This document shows positions 4,844 to 54,191 of a stretch of 54,208 bases of DNA, piece after piece. Position 1 is the first letter of the stretch. Each line of letters starts with the position of its first letter. The notes below the pieces were generated by a model that was not told the origin of the DNA, did not search any database, and was given only the letters and a program-made list of their open reading frames with translations. This stretch comes from an uncultured Bacilli bacterium (GTDB lineage Bacteria > Bacillota_I > Bacilli_A > RF39 > UBA660): contig CANQGF010000002.1 in the NCBI GenBank assembly GCA_947601485.1, positions 1 through 54,208 of the forward strand, in the 5' to 3' direction. A program made the translations under genes and the position numbers.

Positions 4844-6064
4844 ATGGATAAAGAATTAAAAGAAGCGTTAGATTTAGAAAGGAAAAGACAAGAAGATAAT
4901 ATTGAACTTATCGCATCAGAAAACTATGTTTCTAAAGCAGTATTAGAGTTACAAGGAAGTATTTTAACCAATAAATATGCAGAAGGATATCCTCATAAAA
5001 GATATTATGGTGGATGTGAATACATTGATATTTTTGAAGAAAAAGCAATAGAATATGCTAAAAAGTTATTCCATTGTGAATATGCTAATGTTCAACCACA
5101 TAGTGGATCAAGTGCTAATATGGCTGTCTATAAAGCATTACTCAAACCAGGTGACAAAGTAATGGGGATGAATCTTTCTCATGGTGGGCATTTAACTCAT
5201 GGCTATAAGCTAAATTTTAGTGGGATGGAATATAATATAGTTAGTTACGATGTTGATAGTAAAACCGAAATGATCAATTACGATAATTTAAGAAATATAG
5301 CTTTGGAAGAAAAGCCACGAATGATAATTGCTGGAGCTTCTGCATATTCAAGAATAATTGATTTTAAAAAAATAAGAGAAATTTGTGATGAAGTTGGAGC
5401 TTATATGTTTGTTGATATGGCTCATATTGCTGGTTTAGTAGCTACTAATCTACATCCATCACCAATTCCTTATGCTGATGTTGTAACAACAACCACTCAT
5501 AAGACTTTGCGTGGTCCAAGAGGTGGCTTAATACTTACTAATAATGAAGAAATAGCTAAAAAGATTAATAAAATTGTCTTTCCGGGAATTCAAGGTGGGC
5601 CTTTAATGCACGTTATAGCTGCTAAAGCAGAATGCTTTTATGAAGCATTAAAACCTGAATTTAAAGAATATATGGAACAAGTTGTCAAGAATATTAAAGC
5701 AATGAGTGATGAGTTTATTAAAATGGGTTATCACGTAGTAAGTAATGGCACTGATAATCATTTGATTTTACTTGATGTCAAAAGTATAGGATCTACCGGT
5801 AAAGAAGCAGAAGAACTTTTAGACAAAATTCATATTACAGTAAATAAAAATACTATACCTAATGAAACCGAAAAAGCAACTATTGCAAGTGGCATTAGAA
5901 TTGGTAGTCCAGCCATGACTTCAAGAGGCTTAAAAGAAGATGAATTTATTAAAATAGCTCATATTATTGATGAAGCATTAAAAAATAAAGATAATGAAGA
6001 AGTGTTAAATAAATTAACTGATGATGTTTTAAGTATTACCCATAAACATCCACTTATGTATTAG
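4844..6064 (+). CDS. glyA: serine hydroxymethyltransferase
   Basis: [21 protein letters not shown], and the PLP-lysine motif [14 protein letters not shown]. Confidence 0.97.
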
Positions 6065-6076
6065 GAGGTATGAAGT

Positions 6077-6928
6077 ATGTCTAAATGGGATAAAAAATAT
6101 ATTGAATTATGTGAAGAAATACTTGAAAAGGGAGTAAGAGTAGAAAATAGAACAGGTATTGATACAATTAAAATTCCTTTTAAATCATTCGAATTTGATT
6201 TAGAAGAAGAGTTTCCAATTTTAACTACTAAATTTGTAGCCTTTAAATCAGCGGTTTTAGAATTATTATGGTTTTATCAAGCAAAAAGTAATGATGTTAG
6301 ATGGCTTCAAGAACGTGGTGTTAAAATTTGGAATGAATGGGAATTTGATGATAATGGAAATTATCAAGGTAAAACATTCCCAAAAGAATATGCTCATACA
6401 ATCGGAACTGCATATGGTTATATAGTAAATAAATTTAATTTAACTGATGATTTAATTAAAAAAATTAAAGAAACACCAACTGATCGAAGAATGATTATGA
6501 GTTTATGGCAAAATGATTATTTAAATACTGCTGTTTTACCTTCTTGCGTTTGGAATACAATGTGGGATGTAACTGATGGTCATTTAAATTGTGTTGTTAC
6601 TTGCCGAAGTAATGATGTCCCTTTAGGAATGCCATTTAATGTTACTCAATATGCTGTGTTAGTTCACTTACTTGCACAAGTAACTGGACTAAAACCTGGT
6701 AAACTATATTACAACGCTAAAGATTTACATATTTATGTTAATCAAATTGATGGTATTAAAGAACAAATTCAAAGGTATAAAGAATTAGGCGATTTTGAAG
6801 CTCCAAAATTATGGATTAATCCTGAAATTGATGATTTCTTTGCTTTTGATAATTCTAAAGAATTAAAAGACATAAAGCTAATTAGATATAAGCATCATGG
6901 TAAAATTTCAATGCCGGTGAGCGTATGA
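6077..6928 (+). CDS. thyA: thymidylate synthase (ThyA type)
   Basis: RTGIDT, DRRMIMS.W, active-site region LPSCVW, RSNDVPLGMPFNV. Confidence 0.95.
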   Translation: MSKWDKKYIELCEEILEKGVRVENRTGIDTIKIPFKSFEFDLEEEFPILTTKFVAFKSAVLELLWFYQAKSNDVRWLQERGVKIWNEWEFDDNGNYQGKTFPKEYAHTIGTAYGYIVNKFNLTDDLIKKIKETPTDRRMIMSLWQNDYLNTAVLPSCVWNTMWDVTDGHLNCVVTCRSNDVPLGMPFNVTQYAVLVHLLAQVTGLKPGKLYYNAKDLHIYVNQIDGIKEQIQRYKELGDFEAPKLWINPEIDDFFAFDNSKELKDIKLIRYKHHGKISMPVSV

Positions 6929-7410
6929 TATCATTAATTGCTGCGGTTGGTGAAAATTTAGAAATAGGTAAAGATAACCATCTAATTTGGCATTTGCCTA
7001 ATGATTTGAAATTTTTTTATAAAACAACCATAAATCATAAAGTAATAATGGGATATAATACTTATTTATCGATTGGACATGCTCTTTCTAATCGTACAAA
7101 TATTGTTATGGTTGATGATAAAAAGAAAGTTACAGCACAAGATGTTATAGCTTATGATAATATAGAAGAAATGATTGCCAAAGAAATTAAAAATGATGAA
7201 GAAGTTTTTGTTATAGGGGGAGCATCAATGTATAAATATTTTTATCCATTAGCTAATAGAATGTATTTGACATTAGTAAAAGCTAGCGATAAAGATGCTG
7301 ATACTTTCTTTCCTGAATATCGAAAAGATTCATGGCATAAAAAAATTCTTCAAGAAAATATTGACAATAATATTGCTTATACTTTTACTTTGTTTGAAAG
7401 AGAAAAATAA
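6925..7410 (+). CDS. folA: dihydrofolate reductase
   Basis: Start overlaps the thyA stop (ATGA). ISLIAAV..N..IGKDN.L.W.LP.DLK.F...T, MGYNTY.S, GGASMY. Confidence 0.9.
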   Translation: MISLIAAVGENLEIGKDNHLIWHLPNDLKFFYKTTINHKVIMGYNTYLSIGHALSNRTNIVMVDDKKKVTAQDVIAYDNIEEMIAKEIKNDEEVFVIGGASMYKYFYPLANRMYLTLVKASDKDADTFFPEYRKDSWHKKILQENIDNNIAYTFTLFEREK

Positions 7411-7437
7411 ATTTATAATAAAAATAGGAGAGTAGTT

Positions 7438-8013
7438 GTGGAAAAGAAAAAATTAATTATTATAGAAGGACCTCAAGGCACTGGTAAAACAACTTTAGCT
7501 AATTATTTAAGAGAAAATTTACCAGGATCTAATCTATATCGTTTATCAGGCCAAAAAGATAAATCAAAAACTGGTAAAGATTTTAGTTCAAAAATGTATT
7601 ATGCTTTATTAGACTATTTAGAAAAAATGCAAGATATTCCGATGGATTTAGTTTTTGATCGAACATTTTTTACTGAAGAAATTTATGCTCGTTTAGGCTA
7701 TAAAGAATATTCTTTTACTGATATTTATGAAGATTTACTTCAAAGGTTTGATAACTTAAATTATGATATCTATTTTATTTGTCTTTATTTAGAAGATACT
7801 AATTTATATATTAAGAGATTAGCAAGAGAATCACATCATAATTATCAAAGTTTTAAAGTTGAAAATAGTGTTAATCAACAAAATGAATATATAAAAATGA
7901 GTAAAGAAATTGAAGAGAAATATTCTAATATTAAAGTGTTACGTTTAAAGATGGATGATTTTACAAATTCATATCAAGTTATTGACGATTTATTTGAAAT
8001 AAATAATAAATAA
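7438..8013 (+). CDS. P-loop nucleoside/nucleotide kinase, thymidylate-kinase-like
   Basis: GTG start after GGAGAG. Walker A is IIIEGPQGTGKTT. There is a DR-type motif (VFDRTFFTEEIYARL) and a basic lid-like segment (KRLARESHH). It is the last gene of the folD-glyA-thyA-folA operon. The specific substrate is not established. Confidence 0.45.
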   Translation: MEKKKLIIIEGPQGTGKTTLANYLRENLPGSNLYRLSGQKDKSKTGKDFSSKMYYALLDYLEKMQDIPMDLVFDRTFFTEEIYARLGYKEYSFTDIYEDLLQRFDNLNYDIYFICLYLEDTNLYIKRLARESHHNYQSFKVENSVNQQNEYIKMSKEIEEKYSNIKVLRLKMDDFTNSYQVIDDLFEINNK

Positions 8014-8061
8014 ATAGACTTTTGCCCCTTTTTTCTTTATAATACTATTGGAAGTGGAAAT

Positions 8062-10523
<2,462 letters not shown>

Positions 10524-34142: not shown

Positions 34143-35405
34143 ATGAATCAAACTTTATTTGTTGGTATTGATGTCTCTCTAAAATCTAATCAAGTTTGTG
34201 CAATAAATTTTAATCAAGACAAACTTCTTAATTTGTCTTTTGATAATACTCCATCTGGTTCAGATTCTTTAGTTAGTTCTATTTCTAACATTATGAACGA
34301 TCATCATTTCAATAAGGTTATCTTTGCTATGGAATGCACTGGTGTTTATTATATTCATATTGCTTCTTTTTTAAGCTCTAATCCTATTTTAAACACTCTT
34401 AATTCTGTTGTTTATACTGTTAATGCTAAAAGCATTGACAAATACAAAGATTCCTATATTGAAATAGAAAAAACTGATCCAGGTGATGCTTTTATCATTG
34501 CTGATTTTATTCGCGTAGGTCGTACTAATTCTTTATCTCCTTTTAAAGGTTCTCAGTTTCTTGCTTTGCAAAGATTAACTCGTCAAAGAAAACACCTTGC
34601 TGACCAAATTACTAAAGAAAAGTGTTATGTTTCTGCTAATATTTTTCTCAAATTCTCTGGTTTGGAAAATACTGATAATAAACCTTTTTCTAATAAATTT
34701 GGTAAATCTTCTTCTGCTATTTTAACTGAATTCCTTTCCATCGAAGATATCATTAATACTCCTATCGAAGATCTTGTCGATTTTATTTCTTCTAAGGGGA
34801 AAAATCGTTTTAAAAACCCAAAAAACAATGCTAATATTTTAGTTAAAGCTGCTAGAGATTCCTATAGACTTGATGCAGTTTCTTATGAAGCTGTTGGATC
34901 TGCTATTGCTTCTTCTTTAACCGTTATTGCTTGCCTTCAAAGTGAAATAAAAAGTATTGATAAGGCTATTTTGAAAGTTATCAAAGGTTTAGATTCTAAT
35001 GCTTATCATATCCTTTTATCCATTCCAGGCATTGGTCCAGTTTTTGCTGCTGGTATCTTGGCTGAGATTGTTGATGTTAATCTTTTTAAATCTCACAATC
35101 AACTTGCTAAATACGCTGGTTTCTATTGGCCTAGACATCAATCTGGTGAGTTTGAACATTCTGATAAACCTATGGCTAAATCTGCTAATATGTACCTTAA
35201 ATATTACATATCGGAAGCTACTTCTTTAATGATTTTTCATAACTCTGCTATGAAAAATTATTATCAAAACAAAGTTTCAGAAGTAAAAACTCATCAACAC
35301 AAACGTGCCCTCGCTCTTTCTTCTCGTAAATTAATTAGATTGATTTTTGGTTTGCTATGTAAAAATCAACTATACGTTCCAAGTGAATTTGATATTATGA
35401 ATTAG
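34143..35405 (+). CDS. IS110-family transposase/recombinase (DEDD RuvC-like N-domain plus Tnp C-domain)
   Basis: The N-terminus is LFVGIDVSLKSNQVCA (DEDD_Tnp_IS110 signature GIDV.K). The C-terminal Transposase_20 region is LLSIPGIGPVFAAGILAEI.D...F.....LAKYAG. RBS is AAAGGTGGTGA. Confidence 0.9.
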   Translation: MNQTLFVGIDVSLKSNQVCAINFNQDKLLNLSFDNTPSGSDSLVSSISNIMNDHHFNKVIFAMECTGVYYIHIASFLSSNPILNTLNSVVYTVNAKSIDKYKDSYIEIEKTDPGDAFIIADFIRVGRTNSLSPFKGSQFLALQRLTRQRKHLADQITKEKCYVSANIFLKFSGLENTDNKPFSNKFGKSSSAILTEFLSIEDIINTPIEDLVDFISSKGKNRFKNPKNNANILVKAARDSYRLDAVSYEAVGSAIASSLTVIACLQSEIKSIDKAILKVIKGLDSNAYHILLSIPGIGPVFAAGILAEIVDVNLFKSHNQLAKYAGFYWPRHQSGEFEHSDKPMAKSANMYLKYYISEATSLMIFHNSAMKNYYQNKVSEVKTHQHKRALALSSRKLIRLIFGLLCKNQLYVPSEFDIMN

Positions 35406-47420: not shown

Positions 47421-47618
47421 ATGTATTATTACGGAAATAATGGTTACTATGGTGGTAACTATGCTGGTACTCCTTGTTGTGGTGGCGGTAACTATGCAGG
47501 ATATACAAGCGGTTATGGTATAGGAGCTGCAATATGGATTGTATTATTTATCTTATTAGTAATAATTATTGGAGCAGGATTCTTTACAGGTAATAATAAC
47601 AATAATTACAATAATTAG
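47421..47618 (+). CDS. YjcZ-family-like tiny transmembrane protein with Gly/Tyr/Asn-rich termini
   Basis: AAAGGAGGT RBS. The core GIGAAIWIVLFILLVIIIGAGFF matches the tiny_TM_bacill/YjcZ pattern (G.GfaLIVVLFILLIIVGa). The N-terminus is YYYGNNGYYGGNYAG with a CC pair. The C-terminus is GNNNNNYNN. Confidence 0.5.
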   Translation: MYYYGNNGYYGGNYAGTPCCGGGNYAGYTSGYGIGAAIWIVLFILLVIIIGAGFFTGNNNNNYNN

Positions 47619-47640
47619 GAAGCTAGTCTTCCTTTTTATT
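47617..47640. terminator. bidirectional hairpin terminator
   Basis: AGGAAG-CTAGT-CTTCCT followed by TTTTTATT. It overlaps the stop codons of both convergent genes. Confidence 0.6.
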
Positions 47641-47835
47641 TGCATTTATTTTTCTTAATTTTGAGTCTATTCTATCTCTTAATTTATTTATTAATTCAGT
47701 GTAAGCAACATTTATTGCACGATCAAAACATTCTATATCATAATCATTTATGTATTTTATTAAAAATGTTTCTACAAATAAGTCACTAAAATTAGTAGTA
47801 AATTCATCAATCATTTTTTTGATTTCTTTATTCAT
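47623..47835 (-). CDS. hypothetical small helical protein
   Basis: Track ORF, 70 aa, with GAGGGAG RBS upstream. No family recognised. Confidence 0.45.
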   Translation of the reverse strand: MNKEIKKMIDEFTTNFSDLFVETFLIKYINDYDIECFDRAINVAYTELINKLRDRIDSKLRKINANKKED

Positions 47836-47970
47836 TTTTTTCTCCCTCTACTATTTATATACGACTTATTTTGTTCATTTCCTTTTAAAATATTTAGAAA
47901 ATTAAAAAATTCTTCTTAAATCTTATTTTAATAATACTTTTTTAAAGTTTGTATTGCCATATAACCACTC

Positions 47971-48018: not shown

Positions 48019-49017
48019 ATGGATTTAAAAGAATTTAAAATAACATTAGATGAATTAATAGCTAATAGTGATCTTGTTTTTATTTCACCTCATGTAAGAG
48101 CGGATTATGATGCATTAGCATCTTCGATTGCAATGAGTTTAATTGTCAAAAAATTAGGTAAAGAACCATTTATTATCATGAGTGATGATATTGATAAAAT
48201 GGAGCAAGGGATGAAAACAATTTACAATGAAGCAAAAGAAATAACTAGTTTTATTACTAAAGAAAAAGCCGAGGCAATGGTTACAAATAATACTTTATTA
48301 ATTACTGTAGATATGAATAAAACTTACTTAACAGCATGTCAAACATTTTTAGATAAGTTTAAAAGTATTGCTATAATTGATCACCACGATAAAGATCAAG
48401 ATACGATTATAACTGACTATCAATATATTATGCCTAAATTATCTAGTGCATCAGAAATTTTAACAGAAATGTTATTTATGTCTAATGTTAAAATCACTTC
48501 AAGAGTTGCTGATTATTTACTAGCAGGTATTTTTTTAGATACTAATAAATTCACAAAGAATGCTAGTACTAAAACCATGGAAACAATTTATAAACTTACT
48601 AAAAAAGGTGGCGAAATTGCTCGAGTAACCGACTTTTTTACAGAAGATTATTTGGTTGACCGTAAAATTCAAGATTTAGTTTCTAAAACGCGTTTTATTA
48701 CATATACAGCTGCGGTTACTATGGGTGATGATAATACTTTATATACTAGAGAAGAACTTGCTAAAGCAGCCGACTACTTATTAAAATACCGAAATATCGA
48801 TGCTACATTTGCTTTAGGATTAACTGGTGAAGACATTATAAACATTAGTGCCAGAAGTAAAGGAACTATTGATGTTAGTGATGTAATGCGTGAAATGGGT
48901 GGTGGCGGTAATGAATTTTCTGCTGCTAGTCAAATAAAAGATTCTACATTAGAAGATACAAAAGACAAATTAACAAGAAAATTAGTACCTAATTGTTATA
49001 AAATAAATAATAGATAA
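48019..49017 (+). CDS. stand-alone DHH/DHHA1 phosphoesterase (NrnA / GdpP-catalytic-domain-like)
   Basis: DHH motifs I-IV are present: HVRADYDALAS, ITVDMN, IIDHHD, GIFLDTNKF. The DHHA1 motif reads GGGNEFSAASQ, where GGGH is usual. Confidence 0.75.
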   Translation: MDLKEFKITLDELIANSDLVFISPHVRADYDALASSIAMSLIVKKLGKEPFIIMSDDIDKMEQGMKTIYNEAKEITSFITKEKAEAMVTNNTLLITVDMNKTYLTACQTFLDKFKSIAIIDHHDKDQDTIITDYQYIMPKLSSASEILTEMLFMSNVKITSRVADYLLAGIFLDTNKFTKNASTKTMETIYKLTKKGGEIARVTDFFTEDYLVDRKIQDLVSKTRFITYTAAVTMGDDNTLYTREELAKAADYLLKYRNIDATFALGLTGEDIINISARSKGTIDVSDVMREMGGGGNEFSAASQIKDSTLEDTKDKLTRKLVPNCYKINNR

Positions 49018-49051: not shown

Positions 49052-49823
49052 ATGTATAATATTATTAGTGATTATATGAAATATGGGATGCCTACTTTAA
49101 TTGAATTTAAAAATATTTGGGAAAATGTAGAATTTGCTTTAAAACATAATTTAAAATTTATTGAGCTTAATATGGATTTACCTTATTGTTTAGCAATAAA
49201 TAAACTAAATTTAAAAGAATACAATATTGAATTTACTATGCATTTAACTGAAAAGTTAAATGTTGCATCACTTAATAATGATTTAAGAAAAAAGTTATTT
49301 AAAAGAAGCAGTTAGAGAAATAAAATTAGGAATTAAAAATAATATTAAAAAATATAATTTACATATTGATTCAGGAGTTTATTTTACCCTTCCAAATGGC
49401 AAAGTATTTTTAAATAATGAATATTTAAAAGTATATTTAAAAAATTTAGATAAGAGTTGTAAAGTATTAAATAAATTAGCTTTAGAAAATAACATTGAAA
49501 TTAATTTTGAAAACACTAAAATTCACCCATTTGTAAATGATGCTGTTAAGGTAATCAGTAAATATGATGCACTTGGGTTCACTTTAGATATTGGCCATAA
49601 TGAAAAAAATGGTGATAAAGCCTATCCGTTATTTAAAGAAACAAATAAAATTAGACATATTCATATGCATGATTATGATGGAGATAGTGATCATTTAGAA
49701 ATTGGTAAAGGTAAAATAGATTTTCATAAATATGAAGATTTACTCAAAAATAATTATGTAGTTATTGAAGTTAAAGAAAAAAATGAACTAATAAATAGTA
49801 TTGATAAAATTAAAGAAATTTAA
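49052..49823 (+). pseudogene. xylose-isomerase-like TIM-barrel (AP endonuclease 2 / sugar phosphate isomerase family) gene with a +1 frameshift in an A6 run
   Basis: Frame 1 (49052..49315) stops at TAG. A second frame is open from 49287 to TAA 49821-49823 and has no start codon. It encodes ...LHIDSG...FEN...LGFTLDIGH...IRHIHMHDYDG.SDHLEIGKGKIDF, the family's metal-binding motifs. The two frames can only be joined inside AAAAAA at 49288-49293. Confidence 0.7.
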
Positions 49824-49924
49824 TTTTATCTTTTTTTATATTATAAATTTTAATTCAATATTAATAATTAATATTGATAAATTCCTAAAAATTTTTTATT
49901 CTAAATTATTGAATAAAATAAAAA

Positions 49925-49943
49925 GTTAAGATTCCCACTTAAC
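49925..49943 (-). terminator. weak terminator hairpin after the 254-aa gene
   Basis: On the minus strand, GTTAAG-7 nt-CTTAAC is followed by TTTTATTTTATT. The stem is only 6 bp. Confidence 0.35.
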
Positions 49944-49960
49944 CTCTTAATTAAAAATTC

Positions 49961-50725
49961 TTACTTTCTTAATAAGATTTCTAAAGATTTTTTATGCCCA
50001 TTTTGGCTAATTGATAATAATTTTTCTTGTTCGTATTTTTTTAAAGTATCATAATAACTGGGTGTAGAATAAGCATTAATAATTTGTTGCATTTCATAAG
50101 GATATAATTCAATTTCTTGACTAGCACTTTGATATAAAAAATTTCTCGATAATTTAAAATTTAAATAAGTTTCTAGATTATTTGCTCTATTTATTTTATC
50201 ACATAAATCTTTAAGATTACTTGTCAGCGTATTAATTAAACGTTCAGCATCTTCTAAAGAAATATTACCAAATTCGTCTAATGTTATATCTAACATTTTA
50301 AGCTCTTTTTCAATGGATGATGTATTGTGCTCACTAATTTTTTTAAGATAATCTACTATTAATAATATTTTACCTTTTAAAATATTAGTATAACTTTGAA
50401 AGTATTCCAATGTAAATGGTTCAAAGTGATATCTGCTAGATTGCAATTCATCTGAAAAATTTTTTAAAGATTCTTTAATATCATCTATTCCCCATTCATT
50501 TAAAGATTTGTATTTTTTATTTTTAGTCTTATCTAATCTTAATTTTAATTCTTCATTTTCTTCAATAAATTTTTTATTTAAATATGCCTTTATCTCATCT
50601 TCCGTAACAGTTATTTGTTCATTAATTGTCCAATTTATAATTTCTTCAAAACCACAATTAAATTCTAATCTAAATATATAAGGTATAAATCCTTGGGAAT
50701 CTAAAAAATTTTCATCACTACCCAT
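49961..50725 (-). CDS. hypothetical protein (second gene of the IS-flanked pair)
   Basis: Track ORF, 254 aa, with AGGAGG RBS. Predicted mostly helical. No family recognised. Confidence 0.6.
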   Translation of the reverse strand: MGSDENFLDSQGFIPYIFRLEFNCGFEEIINWTINEQITVTEDEIKAYLNKKFIEENEELKLRLDKTKNKKYKSLNEWGIDDIKESLKNFSDELQSSRYHFEPFTLEYFQSYTNILKGKILLIVDYLKKISEHNTSSIEKELKMLDITLDEFGNISLEDAERLINTLTSNLKDLCDKINRANNLETYLNFKLSRNFLYQSASQEIELYPYEMQQIINAYSTPSYYDTLKKYEQEKLLSISQNGHKKSLEILLRK

Positions 50726-50792
50726 AACTTGCCTCCTATTAGGATTATATCAGATAACATAAGAAAAATAAATATTGTTATTAATCCACAAT

Positions 50793-52295
50793 TTAATATC
50801 CGCTTCTTAATTCTCTTACAAACATTTTATCTTTAGGATATATTCTATCCCTATCAACTAGTACCAAAGGATACTTTTTAAACCAAACTGGTACTTTCTC
50901 CGGATTTAAGCAATCCGCATCACGATATGTATCCAATAACATAGTATTATCTCCACATGTTCCCTTAATTAAAGTGTCATTTCTTCGATAACCTAATCTA
51001 TCAAGTTCTAAGTCAAAATATCCAAAATATTTAGGATCAATATTAATTGCTTTTCTAGTTAAATACTTTTGTACTTCTAGTCCACCTTTAACTATACCCT
51101 CATTATCCCTTAAATATATTTCTTCATAATTTTTTGCAATTAAATAAAGATTAGGACAAATGACATCTTCATAAGACCATTTTGTCTTTACAAGTTTAAT
51201 AACATAATCACCAATCCTATAACAACTACAAGTTGTACCATTACCAACAAAACCATATTCTTTACTTTGACTTAAGTCCATATATTTTTGGGTCCACTCT
51301 TCTAATAAAATACCTAAACCACATTCATATATTGATTCTAAATCCCTCTCATCTTGAGTTCCAAAAATACTAGATTTTTGTGTATCTTGTCTAGGATAAT
51401 CTAAAAAATACTTTAATCTAATGGCAAAATCATCTAATAATTCTTTACTTATCATTTCTTTATGTCTTAAATATAATGAAAAACGATAGTCAGCTGATGT
51501 ATTAAATAAAATATCAGCATCTTCCTTGAAAATATTCTCTTTTATGTCTTTATGTGGATCACTTAATAACCTACTTGTATCTGAATCAATAATTATGTCA
51601 TTTGTTAATAACCTAGATGCTAAATAATTATATTTATAATCTTTAATAATAAATTCTTTTAATTTTCGATAATCTTTTTCACGATTATTGGTTAGTAATA
51701 AAACCGCTAATTTAGATATGTCATCGGGATTCATTAGTTGAGGTAAAAATGTTAATTGTTCATATTGTTCATAAGTAACTGATGTAGTATATTTGGTAAT
51801 ATCATCATATATTGTATCTATCATTTCTGGATGATTTTTAATCAAATAATTCATAAACAAATAACGAATATGAAGATCTTTATATCTTGATAATTTATGA
51901 ATTAATTCTTTATTGCTACTATCAAAAGCATATTTAACAATATAATCAAAAAACTTTGTATCTCCATTATTAATTAATAATGTATCAAAATATTCATATA
52001 ATATTTTCAAGCCTAAAGGAGAATTATGTAAAAGATTATTGAGCATTTCCGGAGTTACTTTTTTAATATCTAATAACTCATAAGATTCATCCATAAATTC
52101 TGGAATATCATATATTATTGAAAAACAAAATAATGGTAATTTATCTTTTAATTTAGGTAAAAATCCATTTATTATTTCTATTCTACTTGGAGACTTTCTA
52201 ACAAGTTCAATTAAATGCTTGTAATCATATGGTGTACAGTGAAAAACAAAATCAACTTTACCATCTTTTAAATATTCTAATGTATTAAATGCCAT
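50793..52295 (-). CDS. hypothetical protein: helical-repeat N-region plus C-terminal protein-kinase-like module (tentative)
   Basis: Track ORF, 500 aa, with AAGGAGGG RBS. Residues ~347-486 carry GFVGNGTTCSCYRIGDYVIKL (Gly-loop plus Lys strand), YRRNDTLIKGTCGDNTMLLD, and PLVLVDRDRIY (DFG-equivalent strand). No family confidently recognised. Confidence 0.6.
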   Translation of the reverse strand: MAFNTLEYLKDGKVDFVFHCTPYDYKHLIELVRKSPSRIEIINGFLPKLKDKLPLFCFSIIYDIPEFMDESYELLDIKKVTPEMLNNLLHNSPLGLKILYEYFDTLLINNGDTKFFDYIVKYAFDSSNKELIHKLSRYKDLHIRYLFMNYLIKNHPEMIDTIYDDITKYTTSVTYEQYEQLTFLPQLMNPDDISKLAVLLLTNNREKDYRKLKEFIIKDYKYNYLASRLLTNDIIIDSDTSRLLSDPHKDIKENIFKEDADILFNTSADYRFSLYLRHKEMISKELLDDFAIRLKYFLDYPRQDTQKSSIFGTQDERDLESIYECGLGILLEEWTQKYMDLSQSKEYGFVGNGTTCSCYRIGDYVIKLVKTKWSYEDVICPNLYLIAKNYEEIYLRDNEGIVKGGLEVQKYLTRKAINIDPKYFGYFDLELDRLGYRRNDTLIKGTCGDNTMLLDTYRDADCLNPEKVPVWFKKYPLVLVDRDRIYPKDKMFVRELRSGY

Positions 52296-52401
52296 AAAAC
52301 CCTCCTTGTTGGTATAGTATTATATCATAACAAAGAAGATATTACTAATTTTTCCTATTGAAAATTCACTAAAATTAATTAAATGTAATAGATATAATAC
52401 C

Positions 52402-53430
52402 TTGCCAACTTTTAATATGAATTGTCCTAAAACTTCTAAACCACCTTTTGTATGTAACGGTTGTCATTCAAGAACTTGTTGTAGAAAAAATAGATTTATG
52501 TATTTTGCTGAAGATGCTAATCGTGAATATAAAGATAAACTTTCTACTTCTAGGCAAGGTATTAATTTAAATCCTGAAGAATTTGACAAGCTTAACAAGA
52601 TTGTCAAAGATGTAATTGAAAGAGGTCTATCTTTTGCAATGATTATTAGTTCAAATAAAGATATACCGGTTTGCAAAAGAACTTTATATCGTTATCAACA
52701 AATGGAATATTTAAACACTTTAAATATTGATTTACCTAGAAAAGTTCGTTATAAAAAAAGGAAAAAGAATTCTAATTCTATTATAAAAGATAGAAAATAT
52801 CGAATTGGTAGAACTTATCAAGATTTTTTGAAATTTAAACAAGAATTCTTTTTAGAAAACGAATATGATGTTGAAGTTGTTGAAATGGATACTGTTGAAG
52901 GTATTAAAGGTGAAAATGAAGCTGTTTTACTTACTCTTTTATTTACTTCTTCCAATTTTTTAATGGCTTTTAAAATGGAACATAAAAATGTTGAATGTGT
53001 TTCTAAAGTATTTGATTATTTAAAAGACACTTTGGGTTATGATATGTTTTGTGATTTATTTAAGTGTATTCTTACTGATAATGGTGTTGAATTTTCTAAT
53101 CCTGAATACATTGAAGATAATGGTTTTGAATCTTTAAAATCACGTGTATTTTACTGTGATCCTAATCGTAGTGATCAAAAAGGTAAAATTGAGGTTTGCC
53201 ATGAATTTATTAGAAGATATATTCCCAAAGGTGTTTCTTTTAACTCTTATTCTCAAGAACAAATTACTGAAATGATTAATCACATAAATTCTGTTCCAAG
53301 AGATTTATTTAAAGGTCAATCTGCTTTCTCTCTGCAATATCTTTTTACTTATGAAAATTTTTTTGAACTTTTAGGTTACAAACAAATTAGATATGAAAAT
53401 TTAATTCTTAACTCTGATTTATTCAAATAA
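52402..53430 (+). CDS. IS30-family DDE transposase
   Basis: The catalytic region is VVEMDTVEG...AVLLTLL....F..A.K (D), ILTDNGVEFSN (D), and DQKGKIEVCHEFIRRYIPKG (E). The basic RKVRYKKRKK linker and Cys-rich N-terminus are typical. The start may be TTG 52402 or ATG 52417. Terminal repeats were not identified. Confidence 0.8.
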   Translation: MPTFNMNCPKTSKPPFVCNGCHSRTCCRKNRFMYFAEDANREYKDKLSTSRQGINLNPEEFDKLNKIVKDVIERGLSFAMIISSNKDIPVCKRTLYRYQQMEYLNTLNIDLPRKVRYKKRKKNSNSIIKDRKYRIGRTYQDFLKFKQEFFLENEYDVEVVEMDTVEGIKGENEAVLLTLLFTSSNFLMAFKMEHKNVECVSKVFDYLKDTLGYDMFCDLFKCILTDNGVEFSNPEYIEDNGFESLKSRVFYCDPNRSDQKGKIEVCHEFIRRYIPKGVSFNSYSQEQITEMINHINSVPRDLFKGQSAFSLQYLFTYENFFELLGYKQIRYENLILNSDLFK

Positions 53431-53674
53431 AAAAAGATAATACCTTTTATTTAGTATTATCAGTTGTTACAGCAAGTAACATATACAATAAACATAAAAT
53501 TAATTATTTATACAAGCAAAATATCATTTATTATTTTCAAGTTTGTTTTGCACTATTTTTGGCAAAACCTCTTTTGCGTGTTTTTTTAATAATTAATTAT
53601 GACTTTATAATATCATTTTTTTATTTTTTTGCAATATAAAACTCTCGTTTTTATCAATTTTATCTGACATTTTT

Positions 53675-54191
53675 GGCTATTGCTGCTTTTTACTAGTTAC
53701 TTTTGAAATTGATCAAAAATAAAAAATGGTTCTTAAACATTGAGGGGTGATGAATGAAAATTCATCACTCTTTTACGTTTCCTAAAAATGTTAGTAATAA
53801 TCATGATTCGATTTTTAAAATTATTAAAGTTTCTAAATCCAAAGGCAATTCTTTTTATTAATTTACAAGTATTATTGTTTCTTTCCATAACTCCGTTACT
53901 ATATGGTTGTTCTAATGTATTTTTAATATGACTTTTAAAATCTTTTAAAGTGCTTTGAGTTGTTTTCATGTATTCGGATATTCCTTCATATTCTGCCTCT
54001 ACAATTTTTAAAAATAATTGGTAATCCTTCCTTTGTAAAGCATATAACACACTTTGATAAAAGTTATATGTTTCCTTTAGTTCTTTTTCTTGTGATAATA
54101 AATAATCTACTACATCTACTTCTGTCATAAGATGTTAATTTTTAAATTATTTACACCAATTTATTGCAATTTTGAAAAAATAAAAATAGCC
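53675..54191 (-). mobile_element. internally deleted ISL3-family remnant bounded by imperfect inverted repeats
   Basis: GGCTATTGCTGCTTTTTAC at 53675 on the plus strand matches GGCTATTTTTATTTTTTCA at 54191 on the minus strand (13/19, both starting GGCTATT). They bracket a 131-codon ORF that corresponds only to the C-terminal part of an ISL3 transposase. Confidence 0.4.
53733..54128 (-). pseudogene. ISL3-family transposase, C-terminal fragment
   Basis: The SNGVMERNNNTCKLIKRIAFGFRNFNNFKNRIMI motif matches the ISL3 C-terminal signature (TNG..EG.NNKIK.IKR.aYGyRNF.nfr.RIl). Full-length enzymes are around 400 aa. Confidence 0.7.

Follow-up and report, generated by a model that had tools for sequence, protein, structure and literature searches.

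The window analyzed here is a stretch of 54,208 nucleotides (nt) with a GC content of 26%, from an uncultured Bacilli bacterium (GTDB lineage RF39, UBA660; contig CANQGF010000002.1 of GenBank assembly GCA_947601485.1). Its minus strand encodes a protein of 500 amino acids (aa) in which a large helical N-terminal domain precedes a C-terminal module of predicted protein kinase-like (PKL) fold. With a rough probability of 60%, the gene stands alone on the chromosome, is inherited vertically, and belongs to an uncharacterized family of one uncultured Bacilli lineage, with a PKL core that is probably that of a phosphotransferase. What is new here is a PKL family that has not been described before, is restricted to one lineage, and combines a helical N-terminal domain with an unusually small core. 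An earlier, sequence-only reading of the window had recognized the kinase-like C terminus, but had placed the gene together with a 254-aa gene in an operon bounded by insertion sequences (IS) and considered the pair compatible with an accessory conflict module of the anti-phage or toxin type. That first reading is corrected in two respects, since the two genes do not form a conserved module and nothing points to a role in defense. The gene and the two parts of its product are located as follows.

50793-52295, minus strand: gene of the 500-aa protein (open reading frame [ORF])
51273-52295, minus strand: N-terminal all-α domain, codons 1 to 341 (secondary structure and confidence of the structure model, alignments)
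50796-51272, minus strand: predicted minimal protein kinase-like module, codons 342 to 500 (structure model, Foldseek, conservation, substitution rates)

Predicted fold of the 500-aa protein

The full-length AlphaFold2 (AF2) model, which was built on a 38-sequence alignment, reached a predicted local distance difference test (pLDDT) score of 88.6 and a predicted template-modeling score (pTM) of 0.81. A domain-only model of residues 311 to 500 had a pLDDT of 80.5, and the C-terminal module was modeled with higher confidence within the full-length protein than alone. Residues 347 to 487 comprise three strands (β1, 347-352; β2, 356-361; β3, 364-369), a short linker, two further strands, a helix (421-433), and four short strands (β6, 436-438; β7, 451-453; β8, 477-479; and a last one at 485-487). 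In kinase terms, the predicted order is β1-β3, β4-β5, one helix, the catalytic loop, β7, a conserved insert of 23 residues, β8, and the metal-binding Asp. The five-stranded N-lobe sheet and the core of catalytic loop and β7-β8 resemble those of kinases, and the chain ends ~19 residues past D481, so that kinase subdomains VIII to XI are absent.

A Foldseek search of the PDB with the full model retrieved almost only protein kinases (~170 to 190 aligned columns, probability 0.9 to 1.0, E ~1e-2), along with AceK and, for the N-terminal domain, weak, solenoid-like helical-repeat matches to designed PPR proteins. In the BFVD collection, the full model matched mini-kinases of phages and giant viruses with lengths of 146 to 226 aa. 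When the domain-only model was compared with a library of 350,000 PDB chains, all of the top 50 matches reported were PKL enzymes (probability 0.97 to 1.0, E 2.7e-4 to 2.5e-3; 17 matches with E<=1e-3), among them AceK, Kin28, CDK7, TNIK, ERK2, PknB, PKR, NleH1/2, SRPK1, and WbdD. The confident models, the exclusively protein kinase-like matches of the module, and the invariance of K367 and D481 thus bear out the kinase-like C terminus of the sequence-only reading, for which structure prediction and Foldseek had been proposed as a check. In the models, the similarity to kinases is clearly one of fold and divergent.

Residues 1 to 341 are wholly helical in the AF2 model. The "helical repeats" that had been suspected in residues 1 to 340 are therefore confirmed with regard to the helices but not with regard to the repeats, as no internal sequence repeat was detectable in an hhalign self-comparison (P 0.18). 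The N-terminal domain is more variable than the C-terminal module and shows lineage-specific insertions and deletions around aa 75-115, 230-250, and 295-313; its conserved polar residues are Y62, R144, N223, S267, and Y338.

Conserved residues and their predicted correspondence to kinase motifs

Conservation was assessed in an alignment of 80 family members with identities down to 20%. The sole invariant residues (80/80) are G353, K367, N450, F472, P476, and D481, and conservation of at least 90% was found for G362, E407, Q409, G435, D440, L454, Y457, A460, P469, K473, V478, and D483. All of these columns fall in the C-terminal module. The three motif segments quoted in the sequence-only reading exist and contain five residues of the putative catalytic signature, all of them invariant or nearly so.

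51237-51239, minus strand: G353, Gly of the predicted β1-β2 nucleotide-binding loop (80/80; between strands 347-352 and 356-361; aligned by hhalign with G52 of protein kinase A [PKA])
51195-51197, minus strand: K367, predicted β3 Lys (80/80; strand 364-369; aligned by hhalign with PKA K72)
50976-50978, minus strand: D440, candidate catalytic-loop Asp (D in 75/80, E in 5/80; two residues past β6; PKA D166 by register)
50946-50948, minus strand: N450, predicted catalytic-loop Asn (80/80; directly before β7; aligned by hhalign with PKA N171)
50853-50855, minus strand: D481, putative metal-binding Asp in D481-R-D483 (80/80, D483 79/80; two residues past β8; PKA D184 of the DFG motif by register)

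A Gly-containing β1-β2 loop and an invariant β3 Lys, as expected of a PKL protein, are hence present in G353 and K367. The three hhalign pairings are suggestive and were obtained with a mini-profile of PKA and CDK2, the sequences of which had been verified (P 0.004, probability 8%). This alignment left D440 unpaired with D166 and is unreliable past N450, where it pairs DFG with the poorly conserved D455/T456 region instead of D481. From the secondary-structure register we infer that D440 corresponds to PKA D166 and D481 to PKA D184.

A family without a sequence profile

A search of 5.8 billion proteins yielded at least 286 full-length homologs with identities of 50 to 87%, all of them annotated as hypothetical and devoid of Pfam domains. 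When 1.84 billion cluster representatives were scanned exhaustively with an HMMER profile, no more than 202 proteins emerged, which share a uniform architecture of ~450 to 520 aa. With each GTDB species represented by a single genome, the gene was present in 44 species (32 to 87% identity), i.e., in metagenome-assembled genomes (MAGs) from gut or rumen that are labeled Bacilli, Tenericutes, or Mycoplasmatota. No relatives of the 500-aa protein were found in IMG/VR, GenBank phages, or PLSDB plasmids. The gene is under purifying selection: pairwise ratios of nonsynonymous to synonymous substitution rates (dN/dS) are 0.17 to 0.24 overall, with 0.09 to 0.13 for the C-terminal module and 0.21 to 0.31 for the N-terminal domain.

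Three loci (L038, L033, and L024) carry the labels Ignavibacteriales, Muribaculaceae, or Clostridia and have a GC content of 26 to 29%, as do Bacilli loci. Because all family loci lie between 23 and 31% GC, the few odd labels look like binning or labeling noise, which suggests mislabeled or wrongly binned MAGs rather than wide horizontal spread. Locus L043 harbors three tandem paralogs (positions 5992 to 10406; 498, 484, and 495 aa) that are 42 to 47% identical to one another, and G353, K367, D440, N450, D481, and D483 are kept in all three. Decayed copies were also observed: in L050 (6028 to 6429), the last ~133 codons are left, starting inside β2 with stop codons upstream, and the customary upstream neighbors are deleted; the copy in L023 (10 to 1273) is split by a frameshift.

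No known characterized family emerged for either the 500-aa or the 254-aa protein from searches of Pfam, NCBIfam, PADLOC, PHROGs, and PDB sequences, none of which yielded a significant match. Two individual candidates were discarded. Homology to AceK received an hhalign probability of 0.1% in a comparison with a single AceK sequence (the search with Escherichia coli AceK returned ~100%-identical E. coli copies and hence no diverse profile), and the families PF06315 and PF20423 match none of the 80 members; a match to CdiI (E 0.03) occurred in 1 of the 80 members and is noise. Since most tests for a PKL protein at the level of the fold were passed and every test for membership in a sequence family failed, the C-terminal module should be filed as a new PKL family rather than under Pkinase, APH, AceK, or NleH.

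Proposed function and competing readings

The last ~155 residues would constitute a minimal PKL catalytic core, in which the G353 loop, K367, N450, and D481 (together with D483) would bind ATP-Mg and D440 would take part in the transfer of the phosphoryl group. This core would stop after kinase subdomain VII, without an activation segment or the αF-αI helices, as in NleH and OspG. The 340-residue helical N-terminal domain and the conserved 23-residue β7-β8 insert, with its conserved residues Y457, A460, P469, F472, K473, and P476, may stabilize this core in cis and build the substrate site; compensation by the N-terminal domain is proposed because the full-length pTM is high, the module is modeled more confidently in the full-length context, and polar residues of the N-terminal domain are conserved. 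The enzyme would most likely be a phosphotransferase that depends on ATP and has a cytoplasmic protein or a small molecule as its substrate. The further-reaching proposal of an undescribed kinase-fold architecture, in which a dedicated helical domain at the N terminus replaces the αF-αI C-lobe and thereby completes, in cis, a core cut after subdomain VII, and which serves as a lineage-specific housekeeping or regulatory kinase of uncultured gut Bacilli with small genomes, is tentative and has odds well short of even.

Several observations weigh against a phosphotransferase of the PKL type. D440, N450, and D481 follow the canonical order and strand register, but the spacing between D440 and N450 is 10 instead of the canonical 5; the catalytic loop is 5 residues longer than usual, and the inserted loop has low confidence in the model. 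An αC helix was not predicted, the domain model containing just a one-turn helix at 374-378, and there is no family-wide Glu to pair with K367 (E376 in 37/80, E391 in 63/80, no invariant acidic residue in this region), i.e., the usual αC-helix Glu that pairs with the β3 Lys is lacking. The helical C-lobe (αE-αI) and the activation segment are missing as well, with the helix 421-433 as the single one. The domain-level Foldseek matches are of moderate similarity (TMq 0.36 to 0.46, root mean square deviation [rmsd] 5 to 9 Å). At the sequence level, none of the 80 members matched a Pfam kinase family at E<=10, the 500-aa protein had no NCBIfam match, searches with profiles gave no PDB sequence match, and the hhalign probability against PKA and CDK2 is as low as stated above. 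Finally, the gene context offers no clue to a substrate.

Part of this evidence would also fit a protein that has the PKL fold but is not a phosphotransferase and instead serves as a pseudokinase or nucleotide-binding scaffold, acts as an ATPase (examples being Bud32, RIO, and UbiB-type proteins), or catalyzes another chemistry, e.g., AMPylation as in SelO or glutamylation as in SidJ. The atypical catalytic loop with its wide Asp-Asn spacing, the missing αC helix and conserved Glu, the loss of the whole peptide-substrate platform in a chain that ends so soon after D481, and the extreme divergence from all kinase hidden Markov models (HMMs) speak in favor of this explanation. On the other hand, the full set of residues that would bind nucleotide and metal, together with the Asp of the catalytic loop, is either invariant or conserved to at least 94% and is under strongly purifying selection, a pattern unusual for pseudokinases, and the equally truncated NleH and OspG are described as kinases (PMC12756638). 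We regard a function other than phosphotransfer as rather unlikely.

It is improbable that the kinase resemblance is an artefact of modeling and fold searching, in which case the conserved G, K, D, N, and D would serve another function in a different α/β fold. Template-modeling (TM) scores below 0.5, the rmsd of 5 to 9 Å, the lack of an HMM-level signal with its hhalign probability of 8%, and the restriction to AF2 models would be compatible with such an artefact. However, two independent models (full length and domain only) retrieve exclusively kinases in the top 50 matches from 350,000 PDB chains with a probability of ~1.0, the viral library also yields kinases, and the invariant residues occur in canonical order and strand register.

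Comparison with known kinases

The overall layout of AceK, in which the N-terminal domain is helical and the C-terminal one is of the PKL type, is also that of the 500-aa protein as modeled. This isocitrate dehydrogenase kinase/phosphatase (PDB 3lc6) is the top Foldseek match in both runs, but the full-length superposition has an rmsd of 25 Å, the hhalign probability is 0.1%, and the kinase domain of AceK is of full size. The eukaryotic-type Pkinase core, represented by ERK2, CDK7/Kin28, PKR, and PknB, shares the N-lobe topology, the Gly loop, and the β3 Lys with the module, and the candidate Asp and Asn of the catalytic loop and the putative metal Asp stand in the same order and register. In contrast to this core, the module lacks the αC helix and its conserved Glu, has a catalytic loop extended by 5 residues and the 23-residue β7-β8 insert, and is devoid of an activation segment, an APE motif, the αF-αI helices, and an HMM match.

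The small-molecule eukaryotic-like kinases APH, choline kinase, Kdo/WaaP, and RIO have a D-x-[DE] metal-binding motif, which D481-R-D483 resembles. Like the module, they are not regulated by an activation loop, and APH(2'') and WbdD are among the Foldseek matches of the 500-aa protein. Unlike these kinases, the module has neither the H-x-D-x4-N spacing (D440 and N450 being 10 apart) nor a helical C-lobe, and Pfam APH, Choline_kinase, Kdo, and RIO1 have no match in the 80 members. The phage and giant-virus mini-kinases of BFVD (e.g., A0A6J5KT55, 146 aa) are comparable in size and gave the best target-normalized TM score of 0.53 at a probability of 1.0. They are viral single-domain proteins, whereas the 500-aa family has no relatives in IMG/VR, phage, or plasmid sequences.

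A parallel in terms of reduction is provided by NleH and OspG, which lack subdomains VIII to XI and have been described as a "minimal kinase fold" of ~160 residues (PMC12756638). NleH1, NleH2, and OspG (PDB 4lrj, 4lrk, and 4o96) are truncated at the same point as the 500-aa family, and they matched with a Foldseek probability of 0.97 to 0.99 and a target-normalized TM score of 0.41, the best among the PDB matches shown. The activation of OspG requires a bound partner (PMC3585378), a dependence that parallels the proposed support by the N-terminal domain; completion in cis would here be the intramolecular counterpart of the completion of OspG in trans by its host partner. In contrast, NleH and OspG are type III secreted effectors of gammaproteobacterial pathogens that act in host cells, have no 340-aa helical N-terminal domain, and show no detectable sequence similarity to the 500-aa family, which looks cytoplasmic and is encoded on the chromosome of gut commensal Bacilli.

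The 254-aa gene and its expression signals

The sequence-only reading had described two codirectional minus-strand ORFs of 500 and 254 aa with a 67-nt spacer and an AGGAGG-type ribosome-binding site (RBS) each, and coordinates and sequence agree with this description.

49961-50725, minus strand: gene of the 254-aa protein (ORF)
50726-50792, minus strand: 67-nt spacer between the 254-aa and 500-aa genes, with AGGAGG and a TGATATAAT box, no hairpin
52300-52307, minus strand: RBS of the 500-aa gene, AAGGAGGG (AGGAGG at 52301-52306)
52319-52327, minus strand: extended -10-like box TGATATAAT of the 500-aa gene (motif scan)
50732-50737, minus strand: RBS AGGAGG of the 254-aa gene
50744-50752, minus strand: TGATATAAT extended -10 box of the 254-aa gene (motif scan)
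49919-49949, minus strand: AT-rich 12-bp hairpin with U-tract 3' of the 254-aa gene, weakly terminator-like (RNA fold)

In both genes, AGGAGG lies 5 to 6 nt 5' of the ATG. The exact TGATATAAT box of the 254-aa gene is located 19 nt 5' of its ATG; the whole window has 7 sites of this kind by the motif scan, and the estimated expectation for the 67-nt spacer is ~0.002. A consensus terminator scan and RNA folding revealed no terminator or stable hairpin in the spacer, so that read-through from the 500-aa into the 254-aa gene is possible but not required. The proposed operon is accordingly conceivable at the level of transcription, but the 254-aa gene has a promoter-like box of its own and the pairing is conserved nowhere. 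The hairpin 3' of the 254-aa gene folds with -11.1 kcal/mol (z -1.76) and was not called by the consensus terminator scan. A 19-nt inverted repeat (84% complementary) connects the promoter/5' region of the 500-aa gene (52308-52326) with that of the neighboring IS30 transposase gene (52391-52409); both arms read GATATAATAC..T.CCAAC towards their own gene, which may be due to chance or to a common promoter/leader motif.

When the window was shuffled 100 times, stop-free runs reached 157 codons at most; the ORF of 254 codons exceeds this by far and is not due to chance. Its product had a single database match, a fragment with 99% identity, and no family, PHROGs, phage, plasmid, or viral (IMG/VR) match. 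Three more assemblies of this species show the arrangement of the window, and the ORF is intact in two of them. The DNA of the sister strain L052, one of the three, is 96% identical (compared with window positions 49498-51174) and has a 47-nt deletion at window positions 50477-50523 that frameshifts the 254-aa ORF, but the contig has a coverage of 1.4x and the deletion may be an assembly error; the other differences in the ORF comprise 8 synonymous and 2 nonsynonymous codons. The gene was absent from all homologous family loci in tblastn searches and was not found beside any other family member in 44 genomes and 10 further contigs, including the 87%-identical relative L001. In the comparison with L001, DNA homology (blastn) covers window positions 52347-50791, i.e., the 500-aa gene and ~50 nt upstream; it breaks off two bases beyond the stop codon and sets in again at 47886. 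The intervening segment 47887-50790 is specific to the species and comprises the 254-aa gene, a TIM-barrel pseudogene, and a DHH/DHHA1 gene, and L001 has two unrelated small ORFs at the equivalent place. The 254-aa gene is thus a real but dispensable, species-restricted ORFan that is unrelated to the family gene. It would have arrived in a segment inserted 3' of the latter and may be cotranscribed by read-through.

Lineage-specific DNA recurs in the 3' flank of the family gene, namely in the window segment 47887-50790, in L054 (7591-12500), and in stretches of L011, L012, L016, and L026. In the lineage of P0013, a gene for a large serine recombinase begins 127 nt past the stop codon; an unknown protein of 590 aa, a helix-turn-helix (HTH) protein, and a Bro-N protein are encoded next, before frr. 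This flank is possibly an integration hot spot; no convincing att-like repeats were found around the serine-recombinase element of L054.

Flanking genes and insertion sequences

The mobile and decayed elements around the two genes that the sequence-only reading had pointed out were confirmed by family searches.

52402-53430, plus strand: IS30-family transposase, likely true start ATG 52417 (NF033563 match)
52370-52387 and 53495-53512: possible IS30 terminal inverted repeats
53733-54128, minus strand: C-terminal remnant of an ISL3 transposase (family search)
49052-49823, plus strand: xylose isomerase-like TIM-barrel pseudogene, frameshifted (AP_endonuc_2 match)
48019-49017, plus strand: DHH/DHHA1 (NrnA/GdpP-like) gene (family search), inside the window-specific segment 47887-50790

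The IS30 transposase scored 116 bits on NF033563 (cutoff 80) and starts 106 to 121 nt from the start codon of the 500-aa gene in divergent orientation, and the ISL3 remnant follows as described. The TIM-barrel gene is split by one frameshift, and its stitched translation scored 59 bits on AP_endonuc_2 (cutoff 31). The term "IS-bounded" has to be abandoned, as both IS sequences (52402-54128) are situated upstream and thus on a single side, the other side being occupied by the pseudogene, the DHH gene, and core genes. IS copies do not stand at both ends of the segment, and repeats flanking it were not found either. The IS30 and ISL3 sequences would be ordinary insertions 5' of the family gene. 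The remainder of the window is ordinary chromosome with genes for HisRS, RelA/SpoT, MnmA, HolA, ComEC, ComEA, and FtsW.

An intact IS110-family transposase gene is located at 34143-35405 (DEDD_Tnp_IS110 and Transposase_20), which brings the IS families in the window to three (IS110, IS30, and the ISL3 remnant). A small ORF at 47421-47618 on the plus strand (65 to 69 aa) is common to the window and to L001 (3658-3867, minus strand); its product has a Gly/Tyr/Asn-rich N terminus (MYYYGNNGYYGG...), then one hydrophobic helix and a poly-Asn tail, and has no family match. The adjoining ORF of 70/81 aa (47623-47835) is likewise conserved between the window and L001.

Genomic context of the family

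Clustering of the flanking ORFs of 47 family loci revealed no conserved partner gene; synteny is confined to subclades, and there is no universal neighbor. The annotated neighbors are mostly housekeeping genes (PPDK, FolD, Mfd, RecG, GluRS, Ham1, ACPS, RNase HII, Tmk/ThyA/DHFR, RluA-type synthase, glycosyltransferases, and Frr), with occasional neighbors of mobile or polymorphic-toxin type (serine recombinase, Fic, and Imm33). In one subclade (L057, 82-2202; L024 and L025; clusters c62 and c63), a 594-aa transglutaminase core-like protein and a 106-aa Imm33 immunity-type protein are encoded directly before the family gene. Neither the 500-aa nor the 254-aa protein had a significant match in PADLOC or PHROGs, and neither was found in the phage, plasmid, and IMG/VR collections.

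The checks that the sequence-only reading had suggested for its conflict module, i.e., linkage of the two genes in other genomes and proximity to known defense genes, both came out negative, since homologs of the 254-aa gene are linked to the family gene at no other locus and the family neighbors are mostly housekeeping genes. That the two genes are an IS-mobilized conflict module in which the kinase-like protein acts with a partner is therefore highly improbable: the codirectional genes with a short, terminator-free spacer, the adjoining IS30 and ISL3 sequences, the recurrence of the arrangement in three further assemblies of the species, the serine recombinase, Fic, or Imm33 genes beside some relatives, and the three tandem paralogs in one genome are outweighed by a partner that has no homolog outside the species, is absent from every other family locus including the 87% relative, is frameshifted by the 47-nt deletion in a sister strain, and has its own promoter-like box, as well as by the lack of PADLOC, PHROG, phage, plasmid, and IMG/VR matches, the IS elements on a single side, and the predominantly housekeeping context. 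The two-gene conflict module is largely refuted by the nonlinkage, and a link of the pair to phage defense is not supported.

Significance

With the 500-aa protein, the PKL superfamily gains an unnamed family of several hundred members that is seen by no sequence profile. Structure-based surveys now report new PKL families by the dozen (bioRxiv 10.64898/2026.09.18.752743), and because such families are found in batches, one more is useful but unsurprising. What sets the family apart is a complete putative catalytic signature in a kinase core that ranks among the smallest known and is fused to a large helical domain. If the protein is active, it would show how far the C-lobe of a kinase can be replaced, and it would provide a handle on the signaling or metabolism of abundant uncultured gut Bacilli.

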